A stretch of 64,000 nucleotides of DNA from a virus (Duplodnaviria; Heunggongvirae; Uroviricota; Caudoviricetes): the IMG/VR virus record IMGVR_UViG_3300024333_000003. One strand, 5' to 3'. The notes under the pieces were generated by a model, which saw nothing but the letters and a program-made list of their open reading frames with translations, did not search any database and was not told the origin of the DNA. A program made the translations under genes and the position numbers. Below, piece by piece: positions 23,489-60,995 of this stretch (positions are counted from its first letter, which is position 1; each line of letters starts with the position of its first letter).

Positions 23489-23561
23489 GCCGCTATCATC
23501 TAGTGGCCCAGGATATAAGATTCTCAATCTTAATACACGAGTTCGAATCTCGTTAGCGGTA
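23489..23561 (+). tRNA. tRNA-Glu (anticodon CUC, tentative)
   Basis: Cloverleaf with acceptor GCCGCUA/UAGCGGU, T-loop UUCGAAU and anticodon loop UUCUCAA. Confidence 0.65.
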
Positions 23562-23837
23562 CAAAAATTACAAGAGAACCCGTTACACCACGGTGAGGAA
23601 CTTCAGCTCATACAAAGAAGCGAGTGGGAGAAGAATGTGACCAAGATATACTGAGGAAGTTTGTGGCTATCTTTCCGAACGTAATTCAAAGCCATCACAT
23701 TATTCGTTCGCACCACCAGCAAGTATGCAACTCAAACAGACCCAGGACGGCACGCTTCTTGTCTAATAACGGTCGGGTAGAGGCCAATAGAGAAATGACG
23801 GGATAAAACAAAAAGCTGGGTAAGCTCGGTAATAAAT

Positions 23838-23910
23838 GGCGCTATCGTCTAGTTGGTTAGGACACGACTCTTTCAAGGTCAAAAGGCCGGTTCAATCCCG
23901 GCTAGCGCTA
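23838..23910 (+). tRNA. tRNA-Glu (anticodon UUC)
   Basis: Acceptor GGCGCUA/UAGCGCU, T-loop UUCAAUC, anticodon loop CUUUCAA. Confidence 0.65.
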
Positions 23911-24416
23911 CTAATGAAACAGAAAGAACCGAATTTCATAGCTCCGAAGTTTAAATGTACTTGCGGACAAAAATTAAAAGCAACAGACCCCGAAGCATTC
24001 TTTAATACTGCATATACATATATTTATAAATGTCCGGTTTGTGGAATAAAGTGGATAGTAACCTGCGAAGAATCTGGAAATGATTATGAAAATGGTATTA
24101 ATCTTTTGACAGGTGTTATAGAAGAATAATATTAATGTATTTACAAGATGAAGAACTTCAAAAATGGATTTCACAAAAAACAGGGCTTGCTTTTGACTCA
24201 ATAAGTGAAATCGATTTATTACAAATTATACATAAAAAACATTGGAATTGCTATGTAAGTACGATAGGATATGCCAGCGAGGCGCGGGTTGATGTTGCAC
24301 ATCTTTATTCTTTATTAATGGATCCTAGACAATATTATTATCGTATTTTAACCTGTACGGGCGTACAAATTTGTCATTATAATAAATTATTTCCATGTTT
24401 GGTACATGGTGCAATT

Positions 24417-24490
24417 GGGGCGTTAGTGTAATTGGTTAACACGCCTGCCTGTCACGCAGAAGAGTACGGATTCGAGTTCCGTACGCCCCG
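24417..24490 (+). tRNA. tRNA-Asp (GUC)
   Basis: Acceptor GGGGCGU/ACGCCCC, T-loop UUCGAGU, anticodon loop CUGUCAC. Confidence 0.8.
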
Positions 24491-24715
24491 CATGAAACAC
24501 AACAGAGACAAAGATGAATTAAAGGTTTTAAAACGTAAAAGAGTTTGGGATAGATTTAAGTGGTGGTATAATAATCAAACGAATAGGTTGTTTAAAAATC
24601 ATTGGTTGAAAGATAGTTGTAGTATGTGTAAATATGAACAAGCTATCAAATATCGCGAACATACTATACAACGCAGAAAAGATAAAAAAGTCATTAATGA
24701 ACAATTAAATGACAT

Positions 24716-24789
24716 GGAGACATAGCTCAGTCGGTAGAGCTCTAGGCTGAAGACCTGGGTATGCACTGGTTCGATTCCGGTTGTCTCCA
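24716..24789 (+). tRNA. tRNA-Phe (GAA)
   Basis: GGAGACA/UGUCUCC acceptor, D-arm GCUCAGUCGGUAGAGC, anticodon loop CUGAAGA. Confidence 0.85.
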
Positions 24790-24796
24790 CAATAAA

Positions 24797-24871
24797 CGAC
24801 GCGTAGCTAAATTGGTGACGGCAGCCGCCTTATACACGGAAGATATGTGGGTTCAAGTCCTACCGCGTCGA
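24797..24871 (+). tRNA. tRNA, anticodon unresolved (loop contains UAU)
   Basis: Perfect 7-bp acceptor CGACGCG/CGCGUCG and T-arm GUGGG-UUCAAGU-CCUAC. D and anticodon arms irregular by eye. Confidence 0.5.
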
Positions 24872-24889
24872 CTAAAAAATACAATAAAT

Positions 24890-24961
24890 TCAGCAGTAAC
24901 TCAACGGTAGAGTGCCTGGCTGTTAACCAGGATGTTGAAGGTTCGAGCCCTTCCTGCTGAG
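24890..24961 (+). tRNA. tRNA-Asn (GUU)
   Basis: Anticodon arm CCUGG-CUGUUAA-CCAGG, T-loop UUCGAGC. Confidence 0.85.
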
Positions 24962-25101
24962 CTAGCGGGTCGATAGATGTTAGTTATCGGTTAAAGCATA
25001 TATCTCAAAAATATAACACTCTAGGTTCAAGTCCTAGCGCGTATGAAAATACGTAGTAGCTAAATTAAAAACACTGACGTCGCTTAAATTACCCGCGATA
25101 T

Positions 25102-25184
25102 GTATCTGTTGAGCAACTGGCTGGCTCGCCTGACTGTAGATCAGGTCCCCTTTGGGCGTGGGGGTTCGAATCCCTCCAGATACA
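25102..25184 (+). tRNA. tRNA-Tyr (GUA), class II
   Basis: Anticodon arm CCUGA-CUGUAGA-UCAGG with long variable arm; acceptor GUAUCUG/CAGAUAC. Confidence 0.8.
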
Positions 25185-25186
25185 CT

Positions 25187-25261
25187 GTGGCCGTAGGACA
25201 ATTGGCTTAGTCCGACAGGTTGTGGCCCTGTACGTTATGGGTTCGAATCCCATCGGTCACC
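25187..25261 (+). tRNA. tRNA-His (GUG)
   Basis: Anticodon arm ACAGG-UUGUGGC-CCUGU, T-loop UUCGAAU. Confidence 0.8.
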
Positions 25262-26240: not shown

Positions 26241-26315
26241 GGGAGATTAGCTCAGCTGGTTTAGAGCGTCGGTCCTACAAACCGAAGGTCCACGGTTCGA
26301 TCCCGTGATCTCCCA
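26241..26315 (+). tRNA. tRNA-Val (UAC) with C at position 33 (tentative)
   Basis: Anticodon arm UCGGU-CCUACAA-ACCGA, T-loop UUCGAUC. Confidence 0.6.
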
Positions 26316-26837
26316 CACATATGGAAAAGACAGACAATACAATCACTGTCGATATGCGCAAACATTTTAGCAGGCGTCTTCGAGAGGCTGCTAATAAAAA
26401 ACTTGCTTCCATAAAGCAAGAGTACGGCGATCTCGACAAACACATGTACGATTATAAGGATGAACGGGACACGGCTGCTTTATTACCATTAATCCTAAGC
26501 AAAGAAATTACGGTTGCGGATATAGATATATCCAAACTAATCAATCCTTTAAAAGAAGCCATAGATGAAATTTATTCTCCAAGTATCGATATCCTCGATC
26601 TTTTCGGTTCCACGGCATCGGCAAAAATAAGTAAACAAGGAAAGCAGTTACTACTTAAACATAAGGCGGCATTAGCTGAATGTGCAAAACGTGAAAATGC
26701 CGTCGAGAAGGAAATAGCCCGTATTGAGGATAAATTATTTTTTGGTGGAAGCGGAAAATCATTATTAAAGCTTCTAAAAGAGTTCATTGCAAAAAAGTTT
26801 TAAATAACAACCGACAACATCATTGATGTTGTCTTAC

Positions 26838-26911
26838 CGGAGTGTAGCGTAGTTGGCTAACGCACATGCCCTGGGCGCATGGGATCGCTGGTTCGAGTCC
26901 AGTCACTCCGA
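26838..26911 (+). tRNA. tRNA-Pro (UGG) (tentative)
   Basis: Anticodon arm CAUGC-CCUGGGC-GCAUG, T-loop UUCGAGU. Confidence 0.6.
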
Positions 26912-27801
26912 CACTATAAATAACTAATGTTAAACAATTTCTTGGTTTAATTTGACAACTTATAAGAAAACCGTTCATGATTTAGAAAGACGTTTTAAGG
27001 TAGCAGAAATTTTTATATCTACATTAAATGCACATAGGTATCATGTCACAAAAGAATTAATTCCGTCGTTATTAGAGGTTGGAACTTATTTTGAATATTA
27101 TGGAACAGTTTTGGGACATACATTATTGTTAGGAATATTTCGACACATTAGTGGAGCAGCTACGTATGATGTAGAATCAGGTGAGGATAATTTTCAATTT
27201 AGTCAGGCTAATTTTTTAAGAACGTGTGTTTTTGCAGCTAGATGTTTATACAGGTCAGATCAAAAAATAAATTACAGGTACGAAATTCCCGGTATTCCGG
27301 AAACTTACTTCTGTCAAACAATTCATTGTTATTCTATAGCAGATATAATAAAGGCGATTGATGATAATCATGCATTTAGACGACCACTTTCAGCGGCTGC
27401 AAATAAACGTGGTCTTTACACATTAGAAGATCGAAAACGTGTTGCACCTGAATGGTTTGATAAGCATCCTCACGAAGAATCCGTAATTTTAGCGAAAGAA
27501 AAATATGTAAAGACCAAGATGCTTATTATTACTGATACACCAAAAAAAATTATATCAGCACCAGAACTTCTTATGGATGCCGAATTATGTGATTCGCTGG
27601 AAAGAATATATCCAGATCTTGAATTAATATTAAAATTCACAGGTATTGAATCCCCATTCATACGAAAAGGATTTGATGCTAAAAAAAGTGAGGACGGAAA
27701 ATTAATAATCGCTAGCGGAGAAGGATATTTCAATTTTCATGCTGATGAAATGATTCGTGCATTAGTCCAATTAAAAGAACAGGGGCTGTTTTAAAATTAA
27801 A

Positions 27802-27876
27802 CGGAATATGGGCCAATTGGTAGGCCACCAGTTTCGGGAACTGGACATCGTGTGGGTTCAAGCCCCACTATTCCGA
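27802..27876 (+). tRNA. tRNA-Pro (CGG)
   Basis: Anticodon arm CCAGU-UUCGGGA-ACUGG, T-loop UUCAAGC. Confidence 0.7.
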
Positions 27877-28294
27877 CAAATGCCAAAACAATACAAGATA
27901 TTGACAAGCCGAGGTATACATTTATCGTTTAGAAAAGGCATACTTGCGGGAAATAGGAAATTAAAAATTTACGGAACATTAGATTGTTATAGCGGCAAAC
28001 GTATGAAAAAAAAGAATCGAGTATTTTTTCTTACAGAACTAGATGCATTACAATGTAGTTATCGCCCCTGTAAAATTTGTATGTATAAATGAATTATTAT
28101 AAACAAGTAAAAATACAATATGATGATGGTGCATTTGAAATATGTTGGATACCTGAAGAATTTGCACACAAGCATCGCCGAATTATAGTAGATGATAAAT
28201 ATGCTAGAGTATTAATAATCTATATGGACATTCGTTTGACTGAAGATCTTATTGAAATAAATCAAAAATTTCCGTTACGGAAAGCAACCGATAT

Positions 28295-28903
28295 ATGAAA
28301 CAATATCCAGAAATTCCTAAAGATGTGCCATCTTTTAATGCACACGTGTTCGATAAAATAGATGGTAGTAACTTACGTTTTGAATACAGCAAAAAACGTG
28401 GTTGGTTTAAATTCGGTACGCGCACAAGATTATTTGACCAATCAGATGACGTATTTGGATCAGCAGTTCCTTTATTTCACGAAACGTTGTTATTCCCGCT
28501 TACCCAAATTATGATTGATAACCGATTTGAACATGCGGTAGTGTTTGCAGAATTTGCTGGGAAAAGAAGTTTTGCTGGACAACATGAAAAAGATGATGTG
28601 AAGACACTGACGGTGTTTGATGTGGCCTTAGATAAAAAAGGATTCGTATCTCCTAAGATGTTCATAAAATTATTTGACGGTAAAGTACTGATACCAAAAT
28701 ATCTTGGATATTATCGCTGGAATAAAGAATTTACCACTAAGATCTATTATAATGAAATAGAAGGAATCACTTTTGAAGGAGTCGTCGGCAAAGATGGGGA
28801 GGGGACGCACTACAATATGGCAAAAGCTAAGACATTGCAGTGGTTAAATAAAGTACATGCTTTATATTCAGATAATCTAGCAGATAAGATAATAAATAGT
28901 TAA
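28295..28903 (+). CDS. RNA-ligase-like nucleotidyltransferase (KxDGxN motif I)
   Basis: DKIDGSN (motif I), EGVVGK (motif IV), KAK (motif V). Confidence 0.55.
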   Translation: MKQYPEIPKDVPSFNAHVFDKIDGSNLRFEYSKKRGWFKFGTRTRLFDQSDDVFGSAVPLFHETLLFPLTQIMIDNRFEHAVVFAEFAGKRSFAGQHEKDDVKTLTVFDVALDKKGFVSPKMFIKLFDGKVLIPKYLGYYRWNKEFTTKIYYNEIEGITFEGVVGKDGEGTHYNMAKAKTLQWLNKVHALYSDNLADKIINS

Positions 28904-29463
28904 TGGAACAACTAATCTGCGGTAAAAACCATAAGAAGATCGGGGTAACTCCTTCGATCGTACTAATTAATCCTAAATATCCAAGAAACGTTGGCGCAAT
29001 AATACGTGCTGCATCTTGTTTTGGTATAGCCCAGGTTTGGTACACCGGCAATCGTGTATCAATGACACCAACAAAAGATTATCGTTTACCAAGAGAAGAA
29101 CGGATGAAGGGTTATAAAGAAGTTACACTCACACAATTTGATTATCCGTTTGATATGTTTGAAAAAGCAATTCCTATTGCAATTGAAGTGCGAGAAAACT
29201 CTGAAAACTTATTAGACTTTGAACATCCATATAATGCAGTGTATGTTTTTGGTCCAGAAGATGGTGGTATTGAACGAGTACATATGCAACACTGCCATCG
29301 AATTGTCACTATACCCACGAAACATTGCACAAACTTGGCAGCGGCTGTTTATCTTACTTTATATGATAGATATGCCAAACGAGTACGTGCAGGAAAAGAT
29401 CAAATATTCAATATAGGAAAAAATGAACAACGAGGTTATGAAGAAGGGGCTGAATTTGGATGA
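28903..29463 (+). CDS. SpoU/TrmH-family RNA 2'-O-methyltransferase
   Basis: NVGAIIRAASCFG and YVFGPEDGGI SPOUT motifs. Confidence 0.7.
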   Translation: MEQLICGKNHKKIGVTPSIVLINPKYPRNVGAIIRAASCFGIAQVWYTGNRVSMTPTKDYRLPREERMKGYKEVTLTQFDYPFDMFEKAIPIAIEVRENSENLLDFEHPYNAVYVFGPEDGGIERVHMQHCHRIVTIPTKHCTNLAAAVYLTLYDRYAKRVRAGKDQIFNIGKNEQRGYEEGAEFG

Positions 29464-29945
29464 TACCAAAAGAAATTGAATATAAATTTTTGTTCTTTGA
29501 TGAGAATGTTGTGCTTCCACAGCTGGCTCAAGCTAGTAAATCAATAAAATTAATGCAGGGTTATACAATAGATGGGATTAGGTTTACTCAACGAGTACAT
29601 GAAGATAATACAAAAGATTATAAAATAAATTATAAATTAGGAATGGGTGTAGTTCGGGACGAAGCACAATGTCAAATAGATGAAAATGTGTTTATTGCAA
29701 TTTGGCCCTTAACAATTGGTCGACGTGTTTACAAAACACGTTATCACTTTCCACTGGAATCTGGTCTTATATTAGAATTAGATGTATATCAACATTCGAG
29801 GAAATGGCCATTGATCACTGGAGAAATAGAGTTTGCTACGGAAGAGGAAGCAGATAATTACTCAGACACTGAATTGGGGCGCTTCGGCAGTTTTTTATAT
29901 GTAACTGGCGACTCTGAGTATCTGAATATAAACTTAGCCTGTTAA
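29460..29945 (+). CDS. CYTH-domain (triphosphate tunnel) protein
   Basis: N-terminal EIEYKF (EIERKF-type) signature. Confidence 0.45.
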   Translation: MIPKEIEYKFLFFDENVVLPQLAQASKSIKLMQGYTIDGIRFTQRVHEDNTKDYKINYKLGMGVVRDEAQCQIDENVFIAIWPLTIGRRVYKTRYHFPLESGLILELDVYQHSRKWPLITGEIEFATEEEADNYSDTELGRFGSFLYVTGDSEYLNINLAC

Positions 29946-29953
29946 TAAATTAT

Positions 29954-30027
29954 GCTCTCGTACATCAATTGGACAGAGCTGCGCCTTCTAAGCGTGAGCG
30001 TTGCGAGTTCGAGTCTCGCCGAGAGTA
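29954..30027 (+). tRNA. tRNA-Arg (UCU), irregular D-arm
   Basis: Anticodon arm UGCGC-CUUCUAA-GCGUG, T-arm GCGAG-UUCGAGU-CUCGC. Confidence 0.55.
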
Positions 30028-30070
30028 CAAGATGCCCCTTAGCGTATTTTCATTCATAAGGAGAAAATAT

Positions 30071-30523
30071 ATGCTACCTATTTTAAAAAGAGACTTTGCC
30101 TCTGATATAGAATATTGGCTTAATGATATTAGAAAAGCCTTTGAGGAGGCAGCAAATTTGGAACTATGTTTTGAACCTATTGGTCGAGCATTTCCAAAAG
30201 TAAACATTTCCGAAACAGACAAGGAATTTGTCATAGAAGCGGCTTTGCCTGGTTATGGAAAAGATCAAATTAAATTAGAAGTTACAAATGATAAAGGAAG
30301 AAAGTTTCTTACTGTAAAAGGTGAGAAATCTGGGAAGGCTTCTAAGAAAGATACACGTTATCTTGCTCAAGAAGTACATTTTTCCTCGTTTCATCGTTCC
30401 TGGGCGCTTCCAGCCGATGTAGATGTAGATGCCATCAAAACTAATATGGATAGTGGAGTTCTTACTATCGAACTTCCAAAAACAAGTCCAAGCATCGACA
30501 AAAAAGAAATAACTATTAGCTAA
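30071..30523 (+). CDS. Hsp20/alpha-crystallin small heat-shock protein
   Basis: Alpha-crystallin domain FVIEAALPGYGKDQIKLEV...GVLTIELPK. Start ATG 30071 preceded by AAGGAG; the track ORF start overlaps the tRNA. Confidence 0.7.
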   Translation: MLPILKRDFASDIEYWLNDIRKAFEEAANLELCFEPIGRAFPKVNISETDKEFVIEAALPGYGKDQIKLEVTNDKGRKFLTVKGEKSGKASKKDTRYLAQEVHFSSFHRSWALPADVDVDAIKTNMDSGVLTIELPKTSPSIDKKEITIS

Positions 30524-30546
30524 CTACGCTCAAGGGGCATCACTTT

Positions 30547-31158
30547 ATGACAATACATATAATTGGTGATATACATGGATTATACACAGAAATATATTTG
30601 CCTATGATCAAGAAGATTGATGGACCTTCAATTCAATTAGGCGATATGGCCCATGGATTCCCAAATACATTTTTACCTGAGTTGCCGTCTCAACATAAAT
30701 TTATCCGCGGTAATCATGATAATCCAGAACTATGTAAAACACATCCTAATTATCTTGGAGAATTTGGATATATCGAAGAATGGGATATATTCTATCTAGG
30801 GGGTGGTTGGTCGACAGATTGGGACAGTAGAATTCCTGGTGTATCTTGGTGGTATGATGAGGAACTGTCAATGCGACAATGTTATGAAGCCTTAAAATTA
30901 TACGAGGTGTCAAAACCACGAATAGTGCTTTCACATGATTGTCCGGAAATAGCAAAGATAAGTATGCTGATATATTTATACGGAAAACATGCGTATAATC
31001 AACCTTCCAGAACAAATCAATTATTGCAAGCCATGTTTGAACTTCATAATCCATCTTATTGGTGTTTCGGTCATTTCCATCATACACGAAAATTTATAAT
31101 TCACAAAACTGCCTTTCAGTGTTTAGGAAAGGCACAATACACAACAATAGAGGTTTAA
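30547..31158 (+). CDS. calcineurin-like metallophosphoesterase
   Basis: GDIHG, GD...GNHD motifs. Confidence 0.65.
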   Translation: MTIHIIGDIHGLYTEIYLPMIKKIDGPSIQLGDMAHGFPNTFLPELPSQHKFIRGNHDNPELCKTHPNYLGEFGYIEEWDIFYLGGGWSTDWDSRIPGVSWWYDEELSMRQCYEALKLYEVSKPRIVLSHDCPEIAKISMLIYLYGKHAYNQPSRTNQLLQAMFELHNPSYWCFGHFHHTRKFIIHKTAFQCLGKAQYTTIEV

Positions 31159-31160
31159 CA

Positions 31161-31877
31161 ATGCACGAACTAGTAAAAAAGGCACGAAGCTTTGCAGAGA
31201 AACGACATGCAGGACATAAATATGGTACATTGCCAGTGGATATTATAGTACATCTTGATAACGTTTATCATGTTTTAATGGAATTTGGCGAAACCGACCC
31301 ATCGATGTTAGCGGCAGGATTCTTACATGATATATTAGAAGACACAAAAACTTCGCAAGAGGAACTGCAAGAAGAATTTGGTATGATAACTACTGCATTG
31401 GTTTTAGCGGTTACTGATGGAGAAGGTAAGAATCGTAAGGAACGCAAAGAAGCAATGTACAATAAAACGGCGGGTCATTTGCGATTCACACGTTTAAAAT
31501 TAGCTGACCGTATAGCAAACATGCGGTATTCCAAGGCTGAAAAGTCTCCGCAGCTGACAATGTATATGAAGGAGTATCCAGAATTTAAAGCTCGCTTATT
31601 CTTTGCGAACGATGGTAACGAAAAAATGTGGGAAACATTAGACGCTTTAATGAAAAGTGTGATTCCACGGACATTCAAATTGAGTCGTGAAAAAGATGTT
31701 AGCGGTGTTTCTGGAAAAGGTATAGTAGGAGAAGGAGTTATATTTACAAACGGTAAATGCGTAGTAACATGGTATGGAAAAATAGCATCAGTCACTGTTT
31801 ATAACACATTCGAGGATTGTGAGCAAATACATGGACACGAAGGAGCAACAAAATTTGTATTCGATAACAAGTTTTAA
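31161..31877 (+). CDS. Rel/SpoT-type HD hydrolase (small alarmone hydrolase-like)
   Basis: RHAGHKYGTLP...HLDNV...AAGFLHDILEDT matches the (p)ppGpp-hydrolase HD domain. Confidence 0.6.
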   Translation: MHELVKKARSFAEKRHAGHKYGTLPVDIIVHLDNVYHVLMEFGETDPSMLAAGFLHDILEDTKTSQEELQEEFGMITTALVLAVTDGEGKNRKERKEAMYNKTAGHLRFTRLKLADRIANMRYSKAEKSPQLTMYMKEYPEFKARLFFANDGNEKMWETLDALMKSVIPRTFKLSREKDVSGVSGKGIVGEGVIFTNGKCVVTWYGKIASVTVYNTFEDCEQIHGHEGATKFVFDNKF

Positions 31878-32307
31878 GGACGAGTGGGAATTCTTATCAA
31901 ATTTCTATCCAGCCCCCATCACATATGATGGCGCTGAATATCCTACGGTTGAACATGCTTTTCAGGCGGCCAAAACATTGAATCCTGCGCAGCGCGAAGA
32001 AATTCGAGTTGCACCGACTCCGGGTAAAGCAAAACAGTTAGGACGAATAGTTGATCGTCGTCCTGATTGGGAACTTATAAAACAAACTGTTATGGCCCAG
32101 TTGTTGGCGGCCAAGTTCACTAATTACCCCGAATTACGAAAAAAGTTAATAGCGACGGGTAATCTTTTTCTTGAAGAAGGTAATACTTGGCATGATAATT
32201 ACTGGGGAGCATGTACGTGTGATTACTGCAAAACTCAATACAAGTATAATATTCTGGGTACGTTATTAATGACAACTAGAGTATTTTTGCAATTGGATTT
32301 GGCATGA
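31819..32307 (+). CDS. NADAR (YbiA-like) domain protein
   Basis: FLSNFYPAPI...YPTVEHAFQAAK hallmark. Confidence 0.7.
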   Translation: MSKYMDTKEQQNLYSITSFKDEWEFLSNFYPAPITYDGAEYPTVEHAFQAAKTLNPAQREEIRVAPTPGKAKQLGRIVDRRPDWELIKQTVMAQLLAAKFTNYPELRKKLIATGNLFLEEGNTWHDNYWGACTCDYCKTQYKYNILGTLLMTTRVFLQLDLA

Positions 32308-32329
32308 AAGGATTGTGAATAATATTAAA

Positions 32330-32403
32330 CGGCATCTAGCTCAACTGGTTAGAGCATTGGTCTGATAAGCCAAAGGTTCTGGGTTCAACCCCCAGGGTGC
32401 CGA
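32330..32403 (+). tRNA. tRNA-Ile (GAU)
   Basis: Anticodon arm UUGGU-CUGAUAA-GCCAA, T-loop UUCAACC. Confidence 0.75.
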
Positions 32404-32601
32404 CGATGAAAGCAAAAATCACATGGAGTATGGACGTTTATAAAGATCTCGACAAATTTGTAGACAGGTCCGCAAAAAATATTACGGACGAAATAGACAA
32501 AGCCTTTGTTAACATAATTACACGAGAATATTACAAAACAAATCCATTAGTATTTAAATTAAGTTACAGAACAACCTCTTTACAAGAATTCTTGAAAAGC
32601 A

Positions 32602-32675
32602 GCACTCGTAGCAAAACTGGATAATGCAGCGGACTTTTAATCCGTTAGGTGGAGGTTCGAGTCCTCTCGGGTGCA
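32602..32675 (+). tRNA. tRNA-Lys (UUU)
   Basis: Anticodon arm GCGGA-CUUUUAA-UCCGU, T-arm GGAGG-UUCGAGU-CCUCU. Confidence 0.7.
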
Positions 32676-32680
32676 CAAAT

Positions 32681-33055: not shown

Positions 33056-33136
33056 CGGGGGATGGTGAAATTGGCAGCCACATGGTCCTTAAAAGGCCAC
33101 GCGAACAGCATGAGGGTTCGAATCCCTCTCTCCCGA
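33056..33136 (+). tRNA. tRNA-Leu (UAA), class II
   Basis: Anticodon arm UGGUC-CUUAAAA-GGCCA with long variable arm. Confidence 0.75.
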
Positions 33137-33199
33137 CTATTAGGAGTTGCACAATAAGTGCACCTAATGCAACAAAACAACATAAAGGATCAAAGCAAC

Positions 33200-33430: not shown

Positions 33431-33511
33431 CGTCTCTTGGTGGAATTGGTAGACACAACGCGTCCAGAACGCGTCGCGAATAGCATGAGAGTTCGAGTCT
33501 CTCAGAGACGA
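33431..33511 (+). tRNA. tRNA-Leu (CAG), class II (tentative anticodon)
   Basis: Anticodon arm ACGCG-UCCAGAA-CGCGU; long variable arm. Confidence 0.65.
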
Positions 33512-33513
33512 CT

Positions 33514-33957
33514 ATGGAATGGTCTAAATATTTTTTTGATTTAGTAACTGTTATTAAAACAAAGTCCAAGGATCCCTCTACAAAGGTTGGATGTGTTATA
33601 GTTGGGCCGTATAATGAAATTATATCTACGGGTTTTAATGGTATTCCTAGATTAGTAAATGAATCTCCAGAACGATTCGAACGCCCGGCTAAGTATATGT
33701 ACACAGAACACGCCGAAAGGAATGCAATTTACTTAGCAGCACGTCGTGGCGTATCTCTAGATGGTGCACGTATTTACTTAAGTTGGTATCCATGTGCAGA
33801 ATGTGCCAGAGCTATAATTCAATCAGGTATCTGTGAAGTTTATATCGATAATACACGATGTGAAGATAACCCCGAAGCTAACGAGCGTTGGGGCGAAAAT
33901 TTTAAAGCGGCGTTAATAATGTTGAATGAAGCAAAAATACCGATTTATGTTATATAG
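33514..33957 (+). CDS. dCMP/cytidine deaminase
   Basis: HAERNAI and PCAECA zinc-binding motifs. Confidence 0.8.
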   Translation: MEWSKYFFDLVTVIKTKSKDPSTKVGCVIVGPYNEIISTGFNGIPRLVNESPERFERPAKYMYTEHAERNAIYLAARRGVSLDGARIYLSWYPCAECARAIIQSGICEVYIDNTRCEDNPEANERWGENFKAALIMLNEAKIPIYVI

Positions 33958-33963: not shown

Positions 33964-34043
33964 GGCCTTGTGGTGAAACTGGCAGACACAACAGATTCAA
34001 GATCTGTCGCGAAAGCATAAGAGTTCGAGTCTCTTCAAGGTCA
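33964..34043 (+). tRNA. tRNA-Leu (CAA), class II
   Basis: Anticodon arm ACAGA-UUCAAGA-UCUGU. Confidence 0.75.
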
Positions 34044-34360
34044 CTATGAAACAAATAAATCTAAAACCAAAATGGTTAAATAAGTATTCGCAAACTCCTT
34101 TACATAAAAAACTCTATGGCGAAGAAAAACAATATGACCATATGATAATTTGTAGTGCAGACCGTCGAAAACCAATAGGGTGTGATCTCTGTATATGTCT
34201 AAAATTTTTAAGAAAGGATGTAAAATGTTAGAACTATTACAATTCATTATGTCAGATTTTTGGATATGGTTAGGTACTTGTTTATTAATATTAGCTATAG
34301 GTGTTGCTATAAATAATATAATTGTCGGTTTTAAAGGCAAATGTGTAAATTGGAATTTCT

Positions 34361-34440
34361 AGCCTCTTGGCGTAATTGGCAGCCGCGTACGGCTTAGGAC
34401 CGTATTCTTCGGAGTAAGGGTTCGAGTCCCTTAGAGGCTA
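34361..34440 (+). tRNA. tRNA-Leu (UAG), class II
   Basis: Anticodon arm UACGG-CUUAGGA-CCGUA. Confidence 0.75.
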
Positions 34441-35082
34441 CACTATGAAAAAAATAAAAAATATATGGCCAGAGACTAAAGGCATGTCCTGGCGAGGTAA
34501 ATTATATGAATGGTGGTACTGGTTTATTGCTTGGAGACACCCCCATAATATACTGATTTTAAATCGACCACCAACATGGTGCGATAAGGACGAACTTATT
34601 CGTTTAGCAGTATTTGAATATCTCGTACGTTTCATTGAGGATGAGTTTGCAATGAATCGTGTTGATTGGGACAGTGATCCAAAACATCAAGAAGCTGCAA
34701 AGGCTTTATTAAAAGCATATAAATGGATAAAAGAGGAACGTCCCAAAGCAGTAGAAAAATACGAGACATTACTACACAATGTTTTTGGCAGTATTTCGTG
34801 GGAGGAACTAGATAAAATAAGCAAAAAAGATGCAGAATCTGTGCATAAAGCAGAAAGATTTTATGAAGCTAAAGACCAAGAAATTTTACATTTAATAATT
34901 CAATATCGATCTTACATGTGGACATAATATGAACCAATCAATAGATACCTACGGATGTTTTGATATGGATTTTAATTCACTCGAAATATCTAATAAACAA
35001 ATTATAACCGGTGTGATAATCGGCGTGACACTTTTAGGGTTAGGTATATTCCTTTATTATAAGTCACACAAATGAATATATG

Positions 35083-35494: not shown

Positions 35495-35535
35495 CCTAAC
35501 TCACAATTTTCAAAAAATATAAAAGGAATAACTCA

Positions 35536-48996: not shown

Positions 48997-49003
48997 CATT
49001 TTT

Positions 49004-50125: not shown

Positions 50126-50197
50126 GCCGGCTTAGCTCAGCGGTAGAGCAGGGCACCTGTAATGCTCAGGTCGGGGGTTCAAATCCCTCAGTCGGCT
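50126..50197 (+). tRNA. tRNA-Thr (UGU) with C33 (tentative)
   Basis: Anticodon arm GGGCA-CCUGUAA-UGCUC. Confidence 0.6.
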
Positions 50198-50219
50198 CAG
50201 AAAAATATACAATTGTATA

Positions 50220-50292
50220 GCCAGCTTAGCTCAATTGGTGGAGCAGTGCTTTCGTAAAGCAAAGGTCAAGAGTTCGACTCTCTTAGTTGGCT
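50220..50292 (+). tRNA. tRNA-Thr (CGU)
   Basis: Anticodon loop UUCGUAA; T-loop UUCGACU. Confidence 0.7.
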
Positions 50293-50629
50293 CGTTATGA
50301 AATTCCACATACCAAAAGAAAACATACCTTATCGTATTATGCGAGATATTGAAATAGAATTAGTGGGTCTTGATAGTGATAGTCGAAAGAAAATGCAGAC
50401 GCGTGGATTTCAAGAGACATTTCACACTGATCCTTTTTACTTACATGCGAAAGATATAATAAAAATCACTACTTGGAGCAATAAACAGGAATATGTGAAG
50501 ATTCGTATATTATCCTCTAGTGATAAACTATATGAAAAATTATGTGGATATGTTCGAGATCCTTCGAATGATCCAAGTTCAACATTTGACTTTTTAAATG
50601 ATGTTGAAATAGAAGAAATTCCGGTATAA

Positions 50630-51190
50630 GATTATGTGGCAGAGGCGACTCTACCGCACTTGCGTTTAATGTATTAATTTAGTATATTAATTTGGGCTCG
50701 ACAGGAATCGATTGAATGAGATGTAGTATAAATGCATAGCGTCAGTGAACCGATGACGTAAAATCCGTTTAAACAATAAGTGCAGAAGAAAAATCTGACA
50801 TGACTTTTGAACAGGCTTTGGCACTAGTCGAAGTACCTGTAGCCGTAATGGCCTAATCGCTGACAAGAGAACTCGATAGCAAGGCCCCAATTGCTATGAG
50901 TGCGATAAACGGGGATGTAGGCCACTTGTCCGAATACAAGTAAGTCCTAAGTATGTAGTTGTAGCAGACGACCGACTAAAAATACAACTAACTATGTGAA
51001 TGAATTTTTATTAAATCCATGCAAGACCGGGGTTCGACTTAGTATTAGGTCGCTTATATAGAAATATATATGACAAAAGAAAGCTCAAACGGCGAAACCC
51101 CTGCTAATAGCGAGGTAACACCGTCGGGTATGTAAAGAAATTTAACAGCTCGCTATCGACTTATAGAACTCTAAAGTATAAAAACTATGA
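50630..51190. ncRNA. ~560-nt ORF-free structured region (candidate ribozyme/ncRNA)
   Basis: Stops in all frames and many local hairpins. AAUUGC and CCGACUAAAAAU / UAGGUCGC motifs loosely resemble group I P and R/S elements. Confidence 0.3.
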
Positions 51191-51194
51191 GTTA

Positions 51195-51641
51195 CTAGGA
51201 TAGTTGGAAAAATTCTTTTTCAAATTGTTTTTTTCGTCGTATTTGTTCTTTGGTGTATTTACCGTTGCGAACAGTCAATTTAGCATAATATCTTATAATG
51301 AATTTCATCCGACGTGATTTCTTTGGATGTCTAATATAAGGCAATAATTTATGCATTACGTCTATTGCATCAGCACGAGTTATTTTCCAACTATATGCAA
51401 TCATGTAATTTCGCTTTTGACGGCCATGATTACAAATAATTCCGCCAAAATATCGTTGTAACGGTAATAAAATTTCTAAACACGTATTAGCTACAGATAA
51501 CACAGGTGATCTGTACTCTCCGGAGTGATTATGTGTTAATGTAACTGAACCCTCACCATCGACGATGCCGGCGGTCCAACTATAAATGCTTTCTATCTTC
51601 GTAGTCTTTTTGGACATGGTAATCTTTTCTCCTATATCCAA
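51195..51641 (-). CDS. LAGLIDADG homing endonuclease (free-standing, single motif)
   Basis: AGIVDGEGSV motif. Confidence 0.7.
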   Translation of the reverse strand: MDIGEKITMSKKTTKIESIYSWTAGIVDGEGSVTLTHNHSGEYRSPVLSVANTCLEILLPLQRYFGGIICNHGRQKRNYMIAYSWKITRADAIDVMHKLLPYIRHPKKSRRMKFIIRYYAKLTVRNGKYTKEQIRRKKQFEKEFFQLS

Positions 51642-51784
51642 AATATACTAAAAGATAAGGGAATAGTCAAGTCTAAAATGAAAATTTTAGAGTTACTGCC
51701 CCGCGAGTCCACCAAGGAGGTTTCTTTTCGTAGTACGTTATACTTCCTCCGTTCAAAATAAATAAAGGAAAACGTACCAAGACT

Positions 51785-51857
51785 GCGGGGTACGTTGGAA
51801 ATGGTCCCCACGAGAGTCTCATAAGCTCTGCATGCAGGTTCAAGTCCTGTCCCCGCT
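51785..51857 (+). tRNA. tRNA-Met (CAU)
   Basis: Anticodon arm AGAGU-CUCAUAA-GCUCU; acceptor GCGGGG/CCCCGC. Confidence 0.65.
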
Positions 51858-52565
51858 ACAAATCGGCCGGATCGAGATTGTTATCATAGATTCGACTTCT
51901 ATTTCTCCCGCCAAGAAAAAATTTGGGAGAAAGCGCAATGGACGCACTCAGTCTCACAACATTGCCGATCTATTTTTAAGGAAAATAAATGACTGCGTTA
52001 TTCGTTATTTTCACTATAATTGTTTCAGTGCTTATTGATCTGGCTGTTCAAGCACATCGTAAACATAAATCATTAAAAACAAAGCCAGAGATTTATTTAC
52101 ATGATCCAACACTCACTATGTGTGATGGCGGACAATTAAAGGAACAAGATATGAAATAGGGCTATATCAATACCTCGTAAACTCACCAGTTTATAATATT
52201 AATAACCGCGACAATAAGTCGCTATATATTTTTACTAAAACTGGAGTTTACAATGACAAAAGAACAATACAATCAACTAAAATCCGAGCTTAAAATCTTA
52301 GCTCAATTTCTTCATTACGACAACTATAATTCACGTGCCTACCAATCACAAAATGCCGGTGGCAAAAAGAAACCAAAAGAAATACCAGAACAATTAGAAA
52401 AGCAATTTAAGGAATTAAATATAAGTCCTTGGAGAGCTCACTATGAGTATAGACATAAACACATATTTATGTCTTTACAACGTGGTAAAAAACGTGAACA
52501 AATCGAAAGACCAAGACAAGGTAACGAACCCGATGAAAATTACATCAAAAAACTTGTGGAGCAGT

Positions 52566-52865: not shown

Positions 52866-52949
52866 CAGTAAAAAATGAAACTATGCAGTTAAAACCACCA
52901 AATGGGCCGGGGATCCATAGCCTCGTTAACCTCCTTTGGGCTGGCGTGT

Positions 52950-53700
52950 TGCCCATTAACCTTATTGGTTAGCTATGAACAATCATAGTACTGTTCGCCA
53001 GAACTGCATTCCAGAATGATTTAGGTTAATTGCGAAAGCCCCTGGAACAGGGGAGTCCTACGCATACTTACCCGTCGTAGGTGAGCCTGTCTAATTATGG
53101 GTTAGACCCAGGGTCGATCCAAAAGGTAAGCTCGATCGAAATTAACTATTGTCTGCGTGGCCGAGAACGAAATAAGCACTAGTCTCTAAAACTAGTTACA
53201 CGGGGTCGTTCCCCGTCGCAGACACTTATTCCTCTGTGGTGAAATGAAAAGAGATGTATATTTGTTACGTATTAATATACATTACTAAGTCACTAGATTG
53301 AATTAGTAGGTGACAGCATCGAGTTACCAGTATAGACTGTTCTTTATGGTCAAGTTCAGAGCAAGTGTATTGGAAGAATAACTAGGATGAAGCGATTAAA
53401 CCAATTGTCATGCGACGAACGTTTAGTTGCGTAGCGGCTGAATATTCAATTGAAAATTAGAATGGGATCTTTACTACTCCCTGTCGAACGCTTACAAACG
53501 GAACTGACTGTCAGTAGACTAAAAGTAATGCTGCAGGTTTGAGTCCTGCCAGAGGGATAAATTTTTATCCGGACGGCGTATTATTCTCTCGACGCCTAAT
53601 AAATATGGGGAGATTATCAGTCCTGTCATAAACAATTCCGCTCAATGAGCACCGGAGCCATTTGATAGGACTTTTGCATTATATATGGCTCCGCCACGAT
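52950..53700 (+). ncRNA. group I intron-like ribozyme core in an ORF-free region
   Basis: P4-P6-like UUAAUUGCGAAAGCCCCUGGAACAGGGGAGUCCUACGCAUAC (~53024-53065). R-like CAGUAGACUAAAAG (~53515-53528) and S-like AUUAUCAGUCC (~53609-53619) can form P7. Confidence 0.45.
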
Positions 53701-53728
53701 TACAAAAAACTTTATATCAGGAGATATA

Positions 53729-58873: not shown

Positions 58874-58909
58874 TAAATAGCGAACAATAATCATTATATA
58901 AGGAACAAT

Positions 58910-59548
58910 ATGAAACGCATATTTATTTTTTTATTTTTATTGTTATTTATATCTATCGGACAAGCGCAATTTAATTCTGGTGCTTGTTTCAAATCACAGT
59001 ATGTAATAAAAGGTATACAGCTGTGTGCAACACCTACAATTGGAGGCTATCTTGAATATTCTACCAAAAACTTTATCGCCAATATTACCGCAGATGCAAG
59101 TATATCTGAACGCTTCTCCGAAAATACTGTTACATTCGCTTGGAGTTTGGTCAATGACGGGTCAATTTGGCTTTGCGACTATTACTATCCGTATCCCGCC
59201 AATAAATATGGGAACTTTGCCAATAAAAATCTGGGCGCACATTTTATTGAAATCGGAGGAAGGTACAATTATGCGGGGTTTGAATTTATGGCGACAGGTA
59301 ATGTTTACAACGACACTACACACAGCAAATACTTACAAATCAACCGAATTATCCGATTACCTGCCGAATCCGGCCAATTATCCTTCTTTATAGGTGCCGC
59401 CATAGGAAAAGCCTTTTTCTATAATACTGAAAAAGGATTGCATGTTATAAATGTTGGAATGAGCCATCAATATAAAAAACTTGTTGTTACATATTATGTT
59501 AATCCAACTGCCGAAGAAAGCAGTGTTATTGTTACTTACAATCTATAG
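58910..59548 (+). CDS. secreted/outer-membrane beta-barrel-like protein
   Basis: Signal peptide MKRIFIFLFLLLFISIGQA, alternating aromatic/hydrophilic strands, C-terminal ...VTYNL. Confidence 0.4.
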   Translation: MKRIFIFLFLLLFISIGQAQFNSGACFKSQYVIKGIQLCATPTIGGYLEYSTKNFIANITADASISERFSENTVTFAWSLVNDGSIWLCDYYYPYPANKYGNFANKNLGAHFIEIGGRYNYAGFEFMATGNVYNDTTHSKYLQINRIIRLPAESGQLSFFIGAAIGKAFFYNTEKGLHVINVGMSHQYKKLVVTYYVNPTAEESSVIVTYNL

Positions 59549-59562
59549 TTTATATATTTATT

Positions 59563-59644
59563 AGAGGTATGTGGGTAACTGGGCATCCCAGCAGAATCAT
59601 AATCTGCCGCGAAAGCCTTGAGGGTTCAAGTCCCTCTACCTCTA
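59563..59644 (+). tRNA. class II (long variable arm) tRNA with CAU anticodon, A73
   Basis: Acceptor AGAGGUA/UACCUCU, anticodon arm GCAGA-AUCAUAA-UCUGC, 12-nt variable arm CGCGAAAGCCUU, T-arm GAGGG-UUCAAGU-CCCUC. Confidence 0.55.
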
Positions 59645-59660
59645 CGAAAGGAGAAATCAT

Positions 59661-60290
59661 ATGTCAATAATGGACAAAATTTTAGTATTAAAGTTAAATA
59701 GATCTTGGATGCCCGTAGGATTTTCTACGATCGCTAAGGCTGTTGTAGATTTATGTGCTGACATAAACTGTTATGCACTTGACATTCAATATGAACTTGT
59801 TGAAGGTCAACCAGATCTCGATAAGCCTATAAGTATGAATCCTGTTACATGGGATAATTGGATACAATTACCCGTACGACCATGGGACATACCACTGCAT
59901 TCACCAAGTATTACTGTGCGGGCACCAACGGTTCTTATAGCAAGACATTTTGACGCCATGCCTATTATTGCATATGGTACTTATCCTACCACACGTCAGA
60001 TCCAAGAACGAGATGAATTTACTGATCAATACACCGGAAGGAAACTCGCTCCCGCTGAGATGTCGATAGATCATGTTGTGCCAGTATCGAAAGGTGGTAA
60101 ACATACTTGGGACAATATGGTATTAACACATAAAGATATTAACTTTAAAAAAGGTAATAGATTAAATAAAGAAGTAGGTTTAAAGTTAATAAAACAACCT
60201 GCCAAGCCCAGGCCTGTTGCTATAAGTTCTTTGATTCGTGAAGTACGACATGCGGATTGGAAGCATTTTTTGTTGCACAAAATAAAGTAA
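59661..60290 (+). CDS. HNH homing endonuclease
   Basis: IDHVVPVSKGGKHTWDNMVLTHKDINFKKGN (HNH). Confidence 0.7.
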   Translation: MSIMDKILVLKLNRSWMPVGFSTIAKAVVDLCADINCYALDIQYELVEGQPDLDKPISMNPVTWDNWIQLPVRPWDIPLHSPSITVRAPTVLIARHFDAMPIIAYGTYPTTRQIQERDEFTDQYTGRKLAPAEMSIDHVVPVSKGGKHTWDNMVLTHKDINFKKGNRLNKEVGLKLIKQPAKPRPVAISSLIREVRHADWKHFLLHKIK

Positions 60291-60395
60291 TGGTATAAGA
60301 ATTTGTTGTTTCCTAGTTTATTAAAACTAGGTGGCGGCGGGGAGTAATCCCTCCGGGTTGTCGACGTTTCCTGCAGCTTGACTGTTAAAAACGTC

Positions 60396-60475
60396 GTATC
60401 CACGGATCGTTTAATTGGCAAGATACTGGCATTACCTGTCAGAGACTACATGGTTCGAGTCCTGTTCCGTGGACA
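60396..60475 (+). pseudogene. tRNA-like element with defective T-arm
   Basis: Acceptor UCCACGG/CCGUGGA and UUCGAGU T-loop, but flanking T-stem strands CAUGG/CCUGU do not pair. Confidence 0.25.
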
Positions 60476-60904
60476 ATGAAACCCTACCGAAAATTTCGTT
60501 TATTCCAAATAAGATGGAAAGAAAAATTAGGATATCCTGACTGTCCATATTTACATAGATGGACATTATTAATATTTGGATATTCTGTACGATTACACCA
60601 TTGGATGAAATCTGATGACAGGAGATTCTTTCATGATCATGCATGTAATTTCATATCGATAGTATTAAAAGGTCATTATACTAATGTCACACCAGAAGGT
60701 AGTTTCAATGTAAAAGCCTTTTCAATTTGGAAATCTACTGCGTTAAAAAAGCATTATCTGGATATACCAAAAGGTGGTGCATGGACATTATTACTATGTG
60801 GACGACCTTATCATAAATGGGGATTTTATGTTAATGGCCATAAATGGAGACCATTGCGATATTTCCATAAATTTGGTATTATACAAACAAAGGATTATCA
60901 ATAA

Positions 60905-60995
60905 GGAGAGTTGAGTGAGTCCGGTTTAAACTAACGGTTTGCTAAACCGTCGCCAGTCGAAAGACTGGCCACAGGTTCGAATCCTGTACTCTCCG
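60905..60995 (+). tRNA. tRNA-Ser (GCU), class II
   Basis: Anticodon arm ACGGU-UUGCUAA-ACCGU, long variable arm. Confidence 0.8.

Follow-up and report, generated by a model that had tools for sequence, protein, structure and literature searches.

Why does a bacteriophage keep a nearly complete set of transfer RNA (tRNA) genes, spread them over ~38 kb and interleave them with its protein-coding genes? The question is raised by IMG/VR virus record IMGVR_UViG_3300024333_000003 (Caudoviricetes), for which we analyzed a stretch of 64,000 nucleotides (nt), referred to here as the window. How large phage tRNA sets are expressed, and why they are retained, is still debated. The element that carries this array is clearly a phage, and the region holds 39 probable tRNA genes, two decayed tRNA copies, a transfer-messenger RNA (tmRNA) gene and an amber-reading tRNA, all in one orientation. 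At half of the tRNA genes the start codon of the next open reading frame (ORF) abuts the tRNA 3' end, and the tRNAs almost always encode a C directly past the discriminator base (C74), with no CCA. Within this clade of phages these features form a sequence rule (no CCA, C74 fixed, and an ATG 0-4 nt away that lacks a Shine-Dalgarno (SD) motif) that predicts a specific, testable mechanism of RNA processing and translation.

tRNA inventory and start codons at tRNA 3' ends

ARAGORN called 37 tRNA genes between 23489 and 60996, all of them on the + strand. With Rfam, 34 tRNA matches (31-73.5 bits) lay at or above the gathering score of model RF00005 (29 bits). Its E-value mode added Val(UAC) at 60400 (40.7 bits, above the gathering score), Ser(CGA) at 46178 (46 bits with a tRNA-Sec-like model), a second type-II tRNA at 46086-46173 (29.5 bits with the tRNA-Sec model) and a CAU tRNA at 59565 (27.8 bits). 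Relaxed ARAGORN settings identified this second type-II tRNA as tRNA-Ser(UGA) (46087-46174), raising the total to 38, and returned two decayed tRNA copies at 24973-25045 and 49370-49444. The genes below or outside the RF00005 gathering score are Leu(CAG), which was found by ARAGORN only, the two UCN Ser tRNAs, the type-II CAU tRNA and a tRNA-like gene at 51784-51859. Taken together, the tRNA genes are almost certainly genuine.

A preliminary description, made from the letters of the sequence, had counted around 38 tRNAs in 23489-60995, with five Leu, four Arg, three Ser, three Thr and two each of Gln, Gly, Lys, Glu and Pro. The scans agree with the number, the limits and the tallies, the third Ser being Ser(UGA), and neither program found far fewer genes. 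The layout of tRNAs scattered one by one among accessory genes was likewise recovered. The claim of only one tight cluster needs amending: the dense cluster at 23.5-25.3 kb is real (eight good tRNAs and one degenerate copy), but tight pairs also occur at 43372/43450, 46087/46178, 48923/49004 and 50126/50220. Similarly, among the reported overlaps, several with ORF ends (2-23 nt) exist in the sequence, but those with ORF starts are an artefact of calling the longest ORF, the real ATG codons lying 0-4 nt after the tRNA. Neither the abutting start codons, nor C74 without CCA, nor the tmRNA had been described.

At 18 of the 37 tRNAs, an ATG ORF of at least 50 amino acids begins 0-4 nt past position 74, compared to 3% of random positions (binomial P 3e-18). 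One of these ORFs encodes HSP20 and has a better start 39 nt downstream (30071, with AAGGAG); the in-frame ATG at +3 after its tRNA, tRNA-Arg(UCU) (29954-30028; 37.3 bits), is probably unused. For the remaining 17 we found no SD-preceded alternative start in the first 35 codons, and their junctions leave no room for the SD motif that other genes of the phage employ. The ATG follows C74 immediately after tRNA-Asp(GUC) (24417-24491; 66.1 bits; ORF 24492-24725), tRNA-Arg(UCG) (44099-44173; 58.9 bits; ORF 44174-44530) and tRNA-Ser(CGA) (46178-46267; ORF 46268-46582). It lies 1 nt past C74 after tRNA-Ile(GAU) (32330-32404; 66.4 bits; ORF 32406-32624), tRNA-Leu(CAG) (33431-33512; no Rfam match, with orthologs in the related loci L018, L027 and L028; dCMP-deaminase ORF 33514-33957), tRNA-Leu(CAA) (33964-34044; 49.9 bits; ORF 34046-34231), tRNA-Trp(CCA) (38376-38448; 58.5 bits; ORF 38450-38701), tRNA-Gly(UCC) (40421-40495; 53.7 bits; ORF 40497-40748), tRNA-Gly(GCC) (42852-42926; 57.8 bits; ORF 42928-43386), tRNA-Arg(ACG) (43450-43524; 68.4 bits; ORF 43526-44089) and a second Val(UAC)-type tRNA with C37 (60400-60474; ORF 60476-60904). 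The distance is 2 nt after tRNA-Glu(UUC) (23838-23911; 55 bits; ORF 23914-24129), tRNA-Pro(CGG) (27802-27877; 59.7 bits; ORF 27880-28092) and tRNA-Gln(CUG) (49004-49077; 68.4 bits; ORF 49080-49367), 3 nt after tRNA-Leu(UAG) (34361-34441; 51.1 bits; ORF 34445-34927) and tRNA-Thr(CGU) (50220-50293; 59.9 bits; ORF 50297-50629), and 4 nt after tRNA-Val(UAC) (26241-26316; 66.4 bits; ORF 26321-26803). The ORF that follows tRNA-Trp reads straight across the next tRNA gene, tRNA-Cys (38612-38685).

Several lines of evidence indicate that these starts are real. Public gene calls place nine starts exactly at the junctions and three further starts inside a tRNA; for annotation, this means that gene callers put several starts inside tRNAs in this region. 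The Pfam domain of the deaminase past tRNA-Leu(CAG) is aligned from residue 1. The ortholog in L018 of the ORF past tRNA-Gly(GCC) aligns from Met1 and is also found 1 nt past the tRNA, and the orthologs of the ORF past tRNA-Thr(CGU) align from Met1 as well, the ATG in L007 again lying at 3 nt. In L006, by contrast, tRNA-Thr(CGU) encodes CCA and the same orthologous ORF begins 20 nt away. Finally, the phage does use SD motifs elsewhere: of 74 other genes, 30 have GGAG, GAGG or AGGA at -17 to -6 (random expectation 4.9±2.2), and G peaks at -13 to -8. We considered TadA as an identity for the deaminase, and NCBIfam instead indicates dCMP/ComEB-type deaminases; we therefore make no claim of tRNA editing.

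The 5' ends of the tRNA genes are similarly tight. Upstream ORFs stop either 0-10 nt short of the tRNA or 2-23 nt into it, and ~20 stop codons lie between -10 and +23 nt relative to a tRNA 5' end, alongside the 17-18 tight 3' junctions. The stop abuts base 1 of tRNA-Lys(CUU) (35422-35496; 73.5 bits) and of tRNA-Ser(GCU) (60905-60996; 54 bits), and it lies 10 nt inside tRNA-Phe(GAA) (24716-24790; 62.3 bits; stop TAG), 15 nt inside tRNA-Asp(GUC) and tRNA-Arg(CCU) (43372-43447; 53.7 bits) and 23 nt inside tRNA-Lys(UUU) (32602-32676; 65.2 bits). Since ORF ends and ORF starts both abut them, the tRNAs occupy the intergenic spaces almost exactly. The same is seen with the degenerate tRNA-like element at 49370-49444, called by relaxed ARAGORN only, which fills an intergenic gap and is followed 2 nt later by the ATG of the next ORF.

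tRNA 3' ends and a proposed processing route

The abutting ORFs are accompanied by an unusual uniformity of the tRNA 3' ends. C74 is encoded by 36 of the 37 tRNAs, compared to a base frequency of 0.17. CC is found once, in tRNA-Lys(CUU) (ACCU), and CCA never. The tRNAs of the relatives follow the same C74 pattern, a few of them with an encoded CCA. With no CCA in their genes, the tRNAs of the window must acquire it post-transcriptionally, which we regard as very probable. The exception to C74 is tRNA-His(GUG) (25187-25261; 57.7 bits), in which C73 is followed by U; G-1 is not encoded either, U being present at -1. Two relatives encode Thg1-like tRNA-His guanylyltransferases (L018, 9249-9992; L028, 13230-13985), and the part of the window that is annotated showed no Thg1.

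A phage nucleotidyltransferase probably completes the CCA ends, judging from two genes on the + strand. The first (47642-48355, 237 amino acids) has only the catalytic head and neck of a tRNA nucleotidyltransferase (Pfam PolyA_pol; NCBIfam CCA tRNA nucleotidyltransferase, 6e-39) and covers positions 24-210 of the 396 in the NCBIfam profile, below the curated cutoff. The second (11781-12848, 355 amino acids) corresponds to the body and tail plus the HD (repair) part of a multifunctional CCA-adding enzyme (Pfam HD and PolyA_pol_RNAbd; PHROG 2244), covering positions 114-350 of a 409-position NCBIfam profile, again below the curated cutoff. With these complementary partial matches, the CCA-adding enzyme seems to be split into two genes 35 kb apart.

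Why a single C would be kept may be explained by how 3' ends are cut. RNase Z cuts past the discriminator and is inhibited by trailers that begin with CC or CCA (PMC7479834), and in P. acnes, cutting between C74 and C75 takes place in vivo (PMC3848588). Based on these properties, C74 without C75 may strike a balance between being recognized, by RNase P or the CCA enzyme, and being cleavable.

For such processing to shape messages, tRNAs and ORFs must share transcripts. The + strand genes leave only 22 non-coding gaps of at least 50 nt in 56 kb, and no gap of that size is present in 26241-32676 (six tRNAs) or in 38376-49894 (11.5 kb with 14-16 tRNAs and ~30 ORFs). Sigma-70-like promoter matches are not enriched in the window (60 and 63 found, ~75 expected), and the phage may use its own sigma factor. 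From the compactness of these stretches, co-transcription of the tRNAs with the ORFs appears likely. Scans of the window for terminators and sigma-70 sites were themselves uninformative, and no shared promoter motif or repeat was found in the non-coding gaps.

We propose the following route. The tRNAs and ORFs would be transcribed jointly as long co-directional precursors, in which host RNase P would cut each tRNA 5' end and an RNase Z-type endonuclease the 3' end, past N73 or the conserved C74. The missing CCA (or CA) would be added, probably by the phage enzyme, and the mature tRNAs would form a nearly host-independent decoding set that protects translation if host tRNAs are scarce, degraded or cleaved by defense nucleases. 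The same cuts would define messages: the 17 genes with an ATG 0-4 nt past C74 would become leaderless or nearly leaderless mRNAs, translated from a 5'-terminal AUG as in mitochondrial tRNA punctuation. Taken as a whole, the sequence from co-transcription through RNase P and RNase Z excision and CCA completion to host-independent decoding and near-leaderless mRNAs stands, in our estimate, at an even balance between right and wrong. Its translational part, that the junction genes are read as leaderless mRNAs, falls somewhat short of that balance. More tentative still, and in our view rather doubtful, is the widest form of the proposal. Here the clade would express part of its accessory genome by a mitochondrion-like punctuation in a bacterium, with tRNA excision at or just past C74 creating leaderless 5' ends as well as upstream 3' ends and so coupling tRNA maturation to gene expression, ORFs with a stop inside a tRNA giving non-stop mRNAs after RNase P cleavage that would be passed to the phage tmRNA, together with the ArfB-like and PTH2-like factors of relatives, and the C74-only ends making the tRNAs dependent on the phage CCA enzyme.

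An alternative is that the layout reflects compaction and nothing else: the tRNAs would be real and useful but gap-filling, with the abutting starts unlinked to processing. Translation of the ORFs would use transcripts that are unprocessed or degraded in part, and would rely on standby or SD-independent initiation or on purine runs in the acceptor strand. The compactness of the + strand block and the ORF stops that abut tRNA 5' ends fit this view, as does the lack of an obvious SD at about half of the other genes. Compaction predicts a continuous range of short spacers, however, and this is not what we found when tRNA-to-ATG distances were compared across nine loci (the window plus five related genomes, in which tRNA order is conserved). 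The distances instead fall into two groups, -1 to 4 nt (55 cases) and 15 nt or more (all others), with just three cases in the range of 5-14 nt between them, and genes more than 15 nt past a tRNA usually regain an SD. Furthermore, the rule holds when the downstream genes are not orthologous. Past the same tRNA, different genes start at 0-3 nt, for example Thg1 past tRNA-Cys and ThyX past tRNA-Ser(UGA) in L018, and unrelated proteins still abut tRNA-Trp and tRNA-Leu(CAA) among the relatives. An acceptor stem directly 5' of an AUG is also expected, from what is established about initiation, to block 30S binding unless it is removed. We therefore regard compaction by itself as unlikely, slightly more so than the clade-wide form of our proposal.

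Several points weigh against the processing model. Five of the nine junction starts in the gene calls have an SD-like purine run in the 3' strand of the tRNA acceptor stem, counted with a looser motif set than the 30 of 74 given above; such runs also favor compaction, and could serve as SD on unfolded precursors. Most junction mRNAs would begin 1-5 nt before the AUG and not exactly at it. In six or seven cases the end of an upstream ORF falls within a tRNA, so that excision of the tRNA and full translation of the ORF are mutually exclusive for that transcript. A C right after the discriminator is reported to lower RNase Z efficiency (PMC7479834), and thus the universal C74 is not obviously an RNase Z preference. 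The absence of a tRNA-Ala means that the set is not fully host-independent. Moreover, the evidence for co-transcription, for the cleavage sites and for leaderless translation is drawn from DNA sequence throughout.

Decoding set, tRNA(CUA) and tmRNA

To what extent does the set replace that of the host? The tRNAs cover 19 amino acids with 37 different anticodons. The remaining members of the dense cluster are tRNA-Glu(CUC) (23489-23562; 61.4 bits; 3' end A73-C74), tRNA-Ile(UAU) (24797-24872; 47.4 bits), tRNA-Asn(GUU) (24890-24962; 68.8 bits) and the type-II tRNA-Tyr(GUA) (25102-25185; 50.6 bits), with a degenerate copy at 24973-25045 (CAA loop; Rfam 31.1 bits; called by ARAGORN at relaxed settings but not by default) that has a broken acceptor stem and no C74 and is a probable pseudogene. 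Further downstream lie tRNA-Leu(UAA) (33056-33137; 47.1 bits), tRNA-Thr(GGU) (35083-35155; 68.1 bits), tRNA-Ser(UGA), which has orthologs in L018, L028 and L029, and tRNA-Gln(UUG) (48923-48997; 60.7 bits). Past tRNA-Cys(GCA) (69.1 bits) comes a mini-ORF (ATG-TAA) and then the SD-type leader of a PcfJ-like gene, and 28 nt past tRNA-Leu(GAG) (47007-47089; 45.4 bits) the next ORF starts with an SD-like AAAAGG. No tRNA-Ala was found in the window at any threshold with ARAGORN or Rfam, though Ala makes up 6.7% of codons; one relative has a tRNA-Ala(UGC) upstream of Val.

The codon usage of the phage is AT-rich at third positions (GC3 = 0.28), with a preference for ATA, TTA, AAA, GAA and ACA, for which matching tRNAs are present. 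This is what classical codon compensation would look like, where the tRNAs supply codons that are frequent in the phage and poorly decoded by the host, and it is consistent with ATA being the commonest Ile codon (read by tRNA-Ile(UAU)) and with tRNAs for CAA and AGA. Compensation is nevertheless an improbable explanation of the array: tRNAs are also kept for the phage-rare codons CTC, CTG, AGG, GAG, AAG and CCG, and none for the Ala codons. Being near-complete and including rare-codon tRNAs, the set looks more like a replacement of host tRNAs than like selective compensation. The preliminary description had read the set as pointing to independence from the codon usage of the host or to counter-defense. 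For the first, the breadth of the set, rare-codon tRNAs included, gives indirect support, and the missing tRNA-Ala limits it.

Replacement would also be useful against defenses that cleave tRNAs, and the set is plausibly compatible with their evasion; phage tRNAs acting against such defenses have been published (PMC10264068, PMC11464382, PMC11555353). As a main role, counter-defense would mean that the tRNAs replace host tRNAs cut by anticodon nucleases and resist these themselves through loop changes, 2'-O-methylation and repair by ligation. In support of loop changes, C33 replaces U33 in four of the 37 tRNAs, namely Val(UAC) at 26241, Pro(UGG) (26838-26912; 59.6 bits), Leu(CAG) at 33431 and Thr(UGU) (50126-50198; 63.2 bits). 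U33 is near-universal in tRNAs. In the relatives, C33 is found in other, non-orthologous tRNAs (Phe, Tyr, Cys, Gly, Lys, Gln, Leu and CUA). However, C33 may merely reflect relaxed constraint. The genes for repair and methylation are represented by an RNA ligase of the PF09414 family (28295-28903, + strand; Pfam 3e-7, 31.2 bits against a cutoff of 27) and a SpoU-class RNA 2'-O-methyltransferase, weakly TrmJ/TrmL-like (28903-29463, + strand; Pfam 5.5e-19; NCBIfam). The stop of the first and the start of the second overlap (ATGA), a pairing that recalls the repair and protective methylation of Pnkp/Hen1. Of the components of T4-type tRNA repair (Pnkp plus Rnl), the window offers the RNA ligase, and also a metallophosphoesterase (30547-31158) and an HD domain; no kinase was identified and no polynucleotide kinase-phosphatase was found. 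Other points in favor, likewise circumstantial, are the pair of genes matching a CCA addition and repair enzyme, the tmRNA, neighbors of anti-defense appearance (Apyc1-like, Acb5/HD, NAD salvage) and, in relatives, Tpt1, Thg1, an ArfB-like and a PTH2-like protein. On the other hand, a set for 19 amino acids exceeds what is needed against any single nuclease. Counter-defense as the main role is thus possible but, in our judgment, unlikely, at about the level we assign to clade-wide punctuation. Neither counter-defense nor codon compensation excludes the processing model.

The preliminary description had seen no suppressor anticodons, and this did not hold: a tRNA(CUA) is present at 53151-53225 (43.6 bits), with an atypical T-loop (GUCGUUC) and a D-loop that lacks GG. 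Its orthologs in three relatives (L006, 2742-2815; L007, 3243-3318; L009, 2030-2103) have canonical D- and T-loops, and their acceptor stems have changed in sequence yet are still complementary, which argues that the tRNA is maintained. Its identities to all phage tRNAs are 0.6-0.7 and give no clear parent or amino-acid identity, and an initial impression of a Trp-like anticodon arm was not borne out overall. ORF-free stretches flank the gene (52866-53150 and 53226-53728), with much shorter gaps in the closest relatives; folding z-scores of these stretches are only -1.8 and -2.1, and no structured RNA was found in them by Rfam. A T-arm-like GCAGGUUUGAGUCCUGC occurs near 53530.

Conservation of tRNA(CUA) in four genomes raises the possibility that the phage is TAG-recoded (code 15-like) and that the array serves an alternative code in late genes; recoded phages with suppressor tRNAs are known (bioRxiv 10.1101/2021.08.26.457843). 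The window gives little sign of this. When TAG is read as sense, no large ORF is lengthened and no two pieces of at least 50 amino acids are joined on the + strand, and TAG terminates 7 of 83 ORFs. Trials of TAG, TGA or TAA recoding gave no TAG-specific gain and joined no + strand ORF pieces. The window covers a minor part of the 215-kb genome; in relatives (L006-L010), the sheath and neighboring late genes are called intact under the standard code. Recoding is consequently a very unlikely explanation. Thus, the phage shares a tRNA(CUA) with the stop-codon-recoded phages (bioRxiv 10.1101/2021.08.26.457843; PMC9523058) but differs from them in that no in-frame TAG signal was found, either in this window or in those late genes that were available from relatives. 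On the minus strand at 1612-6765, ORFs of 923 and 790 amino acids lie in the same frame with one TAA and three codons between them and no Pfam or PHROG match; they could be one gene with readthrough, or a chance arrangement.

Another unusual tRNA is the type-II CAU tRNA (59563-59645; next ORF at 15 nt with AAGGAG), which has a Leu-like body, a long variable arm and A73, is 71% identical to tRNA-Leu(CAA) and has orthologs in L006, L007 and L009. If LeuRS charges it, AUG (or AUA after modification) would be read as Leu.

The tmRNA gene is interrupted. Its 5' part (50694-51039, + strand) comprises the acceptor 5' strand, a tag frame (AEEKSDMTFEQALALVEVPVAVMA, then stop), pseudoknots, the T-stem 5' strand and the T-loop, and its 3' part (51699-51714, + strand) the T-stem 3' strand CCCCG, the acceptor 3' strand CGAGUCC (with G3:U70), A73 and an encoded CCA. 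Because 659 nt (51040-51698) interrupt the gene after the T-loop, the match to Rfam RF00023 (37.4 bits, E 2e-11) remains under the gathering score of 47. When the insert was removed in silico, ARAGORN called a 362-nt tmRNA with the same tag, and the tRNA-like domain, G3:U70, A73, CCA and a tag frame with resume codon were all found in it. The tag is homologous to those of uninterrupted tmRNAs in L006, L008 and L009 (24-27 residues). The insertion resembles a group I intron at its boundaries, the 5' exon ending in U and the insert in G, and contains a homing-endonuclease ORF antisense to the tmRNA (51195-51641, - strand; PHROG 5046, 4.4e-18; Pfam LAGLIDADG_1 at 7e-4, below cutoff), an endonuclease of LAGLIDADG/HNH type. 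Rfam gave no intron match to the insertion at E<=5, so that only the boundary nucleotides and the homing-endonuclease ORF fit a group I intron. Downstream of the tmRNA, the tRNA-like gene at 51784-51859 (CUCAUAA anticodon loop; 18.7 bits; relaxed ARAGORN; U1:U72 mismatch; A73-C74) aligns with the tRNA-Met(CAU) that follows the tmRNA in L006, and is probably its ortholog. In L009, a weak PTH2-like protein (1687-1989) adjoins the tmRNA region.

Relatives, neighboring genes and known systems

By its sequence relationships, the genome is that of an uncultivated jumbo, myovirus-like phage. Identical proteins were found on metagenomic contigs of up to 215 kb, and in the syntenic relatives, whose proteins are 37-67% identical, there are genes for a tail sheath, DNA polymerase A, a sigma factor and homing endonucleases. 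The sheath of these relatives is 26-32% identical to sheaths of Salmonella phage Arash, Vibrio phages and phage G. Among the cultured phages in INPHARED, neither megablast of 20 kb nor tblastn with the 923- and 647-amino-acid ORFs identified a relative. The latter ORF (61004-62947, + strand) starts 7 nt past C74 of tRNA-Ser(GCU), the last of the array, with no SD. Scans of IMG/VR and JGI metagenomes with the PcfJ-like protein returned nothing, and those with the 647-amino-acid family gave only distant relatives (~37% identity) with no tRNAs nearby and a few short contig fragments (42-72% identity), whose tRNA content was not part of the comparison. The sole hint of a host comes from NAPRTase, the nearest cellular homologs of which (55-58% identity) are in Balneolaceae and Bacteroidota.

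The genes between the tRNAs are accessory, nucleotide-metabolism, anti-defense and RNA-related, and also include HSP20, a cold-shock protein, the dCMP deaminase and an ATP-dependent DNA ligase. Candidate NAD-salvage or anti-defense genes are NAPRTase, NadD, SpoT-like HD/Acb5, NADAR and Apyc1-like MBL (36638-38035, 48352-48918, 31161-32307 and 14004-14753). Peptide deformylase (10117-10560) and the Apyc1-like MBL protein lie upstream of the array. Genes related to tRNAs or ribosomes in the relatives are Thg1, Tpt1, an ArfB-like RF-1 domain protein (L027, 2613-3014) and PTH2-like. A DEAD/ResIII helicase is apparently split by a homing endonuclease, with its N-terminal part at 7605-8249, the endonuclease at 8256-9116 (PHROG 4645, 1e-47), a 241-nt non-coding stretch at 9117-9357 and Helicase_C at 9358-9924.

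How does the array compare with known systems? Large tRNA sets with a tmRNA are known in huge phages and C1 mycobacteriophages, and the interleaving of tRNAs with ORFs is known in T5. Huge phages described by Al-Shayeb in 2020 reportedly carry up to ~67 tRNAs. Cluster C1 mycobacteriophages, in addition to their tRNAs, carry a tmRNA. The number of tRNAs is ~33 per phage in this cluster (PMC10264068), and phage G is another tRNA-rich case (PMC12484599). Near-complete tRNA sets with a tmRNA and translation-related enzymes are thus shared with the present phage, but in the literature searched we did not find a punctuated layout with starts at tRNA ends described for tRNA-rich huge or jumbo phages, nor the combination of a conserved C74 without CCA and starts abutting tRNA 3' ends.

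The T5 tRNA region (AY543070, 28-41 kb) is similar: in a block of early or accessory genes, about two dozen tRNAs share one strand and are interspersed with small ORFs, homing endonucleases and stable RNAs. In contrast to the array described here, all 23 of the T5 tRNAs called by ARAGORN encode CCA, and the next ATG ORF is 11-74 nt downstream (mostly 11-34 nt), with annotated coding sequences starting at 13-34 nt and thus leaving room for an SD. Here no tRNA encodes CCA, nearly all have C74, and every second one is abutted by the ATG of the next ORF. A different route to tRNA 3' ends is provided by theta ribozymes, minimal ribozymes like that of hepatitis delta virus (HDV), found beside phage tRNAs, often suppressor tRNAs, that remove the 3' trailer (bioRxiv 10.1101/2023.06.13.544163). 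There G1 is placed at the tRNA end and non-coding DNA follows, while here C comes next in 36 of 37 tRNAs and an ORF follows; no HDV-like Rfam match was present in the window.

The nearest analog of this architecture is the tRNA punctuation of mitochondria (Ojala, Montoya and Attardi 1981; reviewed in PMC8348895 and PMC11469412), as judged by likeness of layout: ORFs are flanked by tRNAs at zero to a few nt in a single direction of transcription, and tRNA excision would give leaderless mRNAs. The differences are that mitochondria are organelles with their own RNase P and RNase Z and with ribosomes specialized for leaderless mRNAs, whereas the phage would use bacterial enzymes, and that here only some half of the junctions are tight, SD leaders being retained by the other genes. 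If the proposed processing is true, the phage array would be a bacterial-virus counterpart of mitochondrial punctuation and a source of natural leaderless mRNAs made by tRNA excision, and it would give a reason why phages encode CCA-adding enzymes and tmRNAs.

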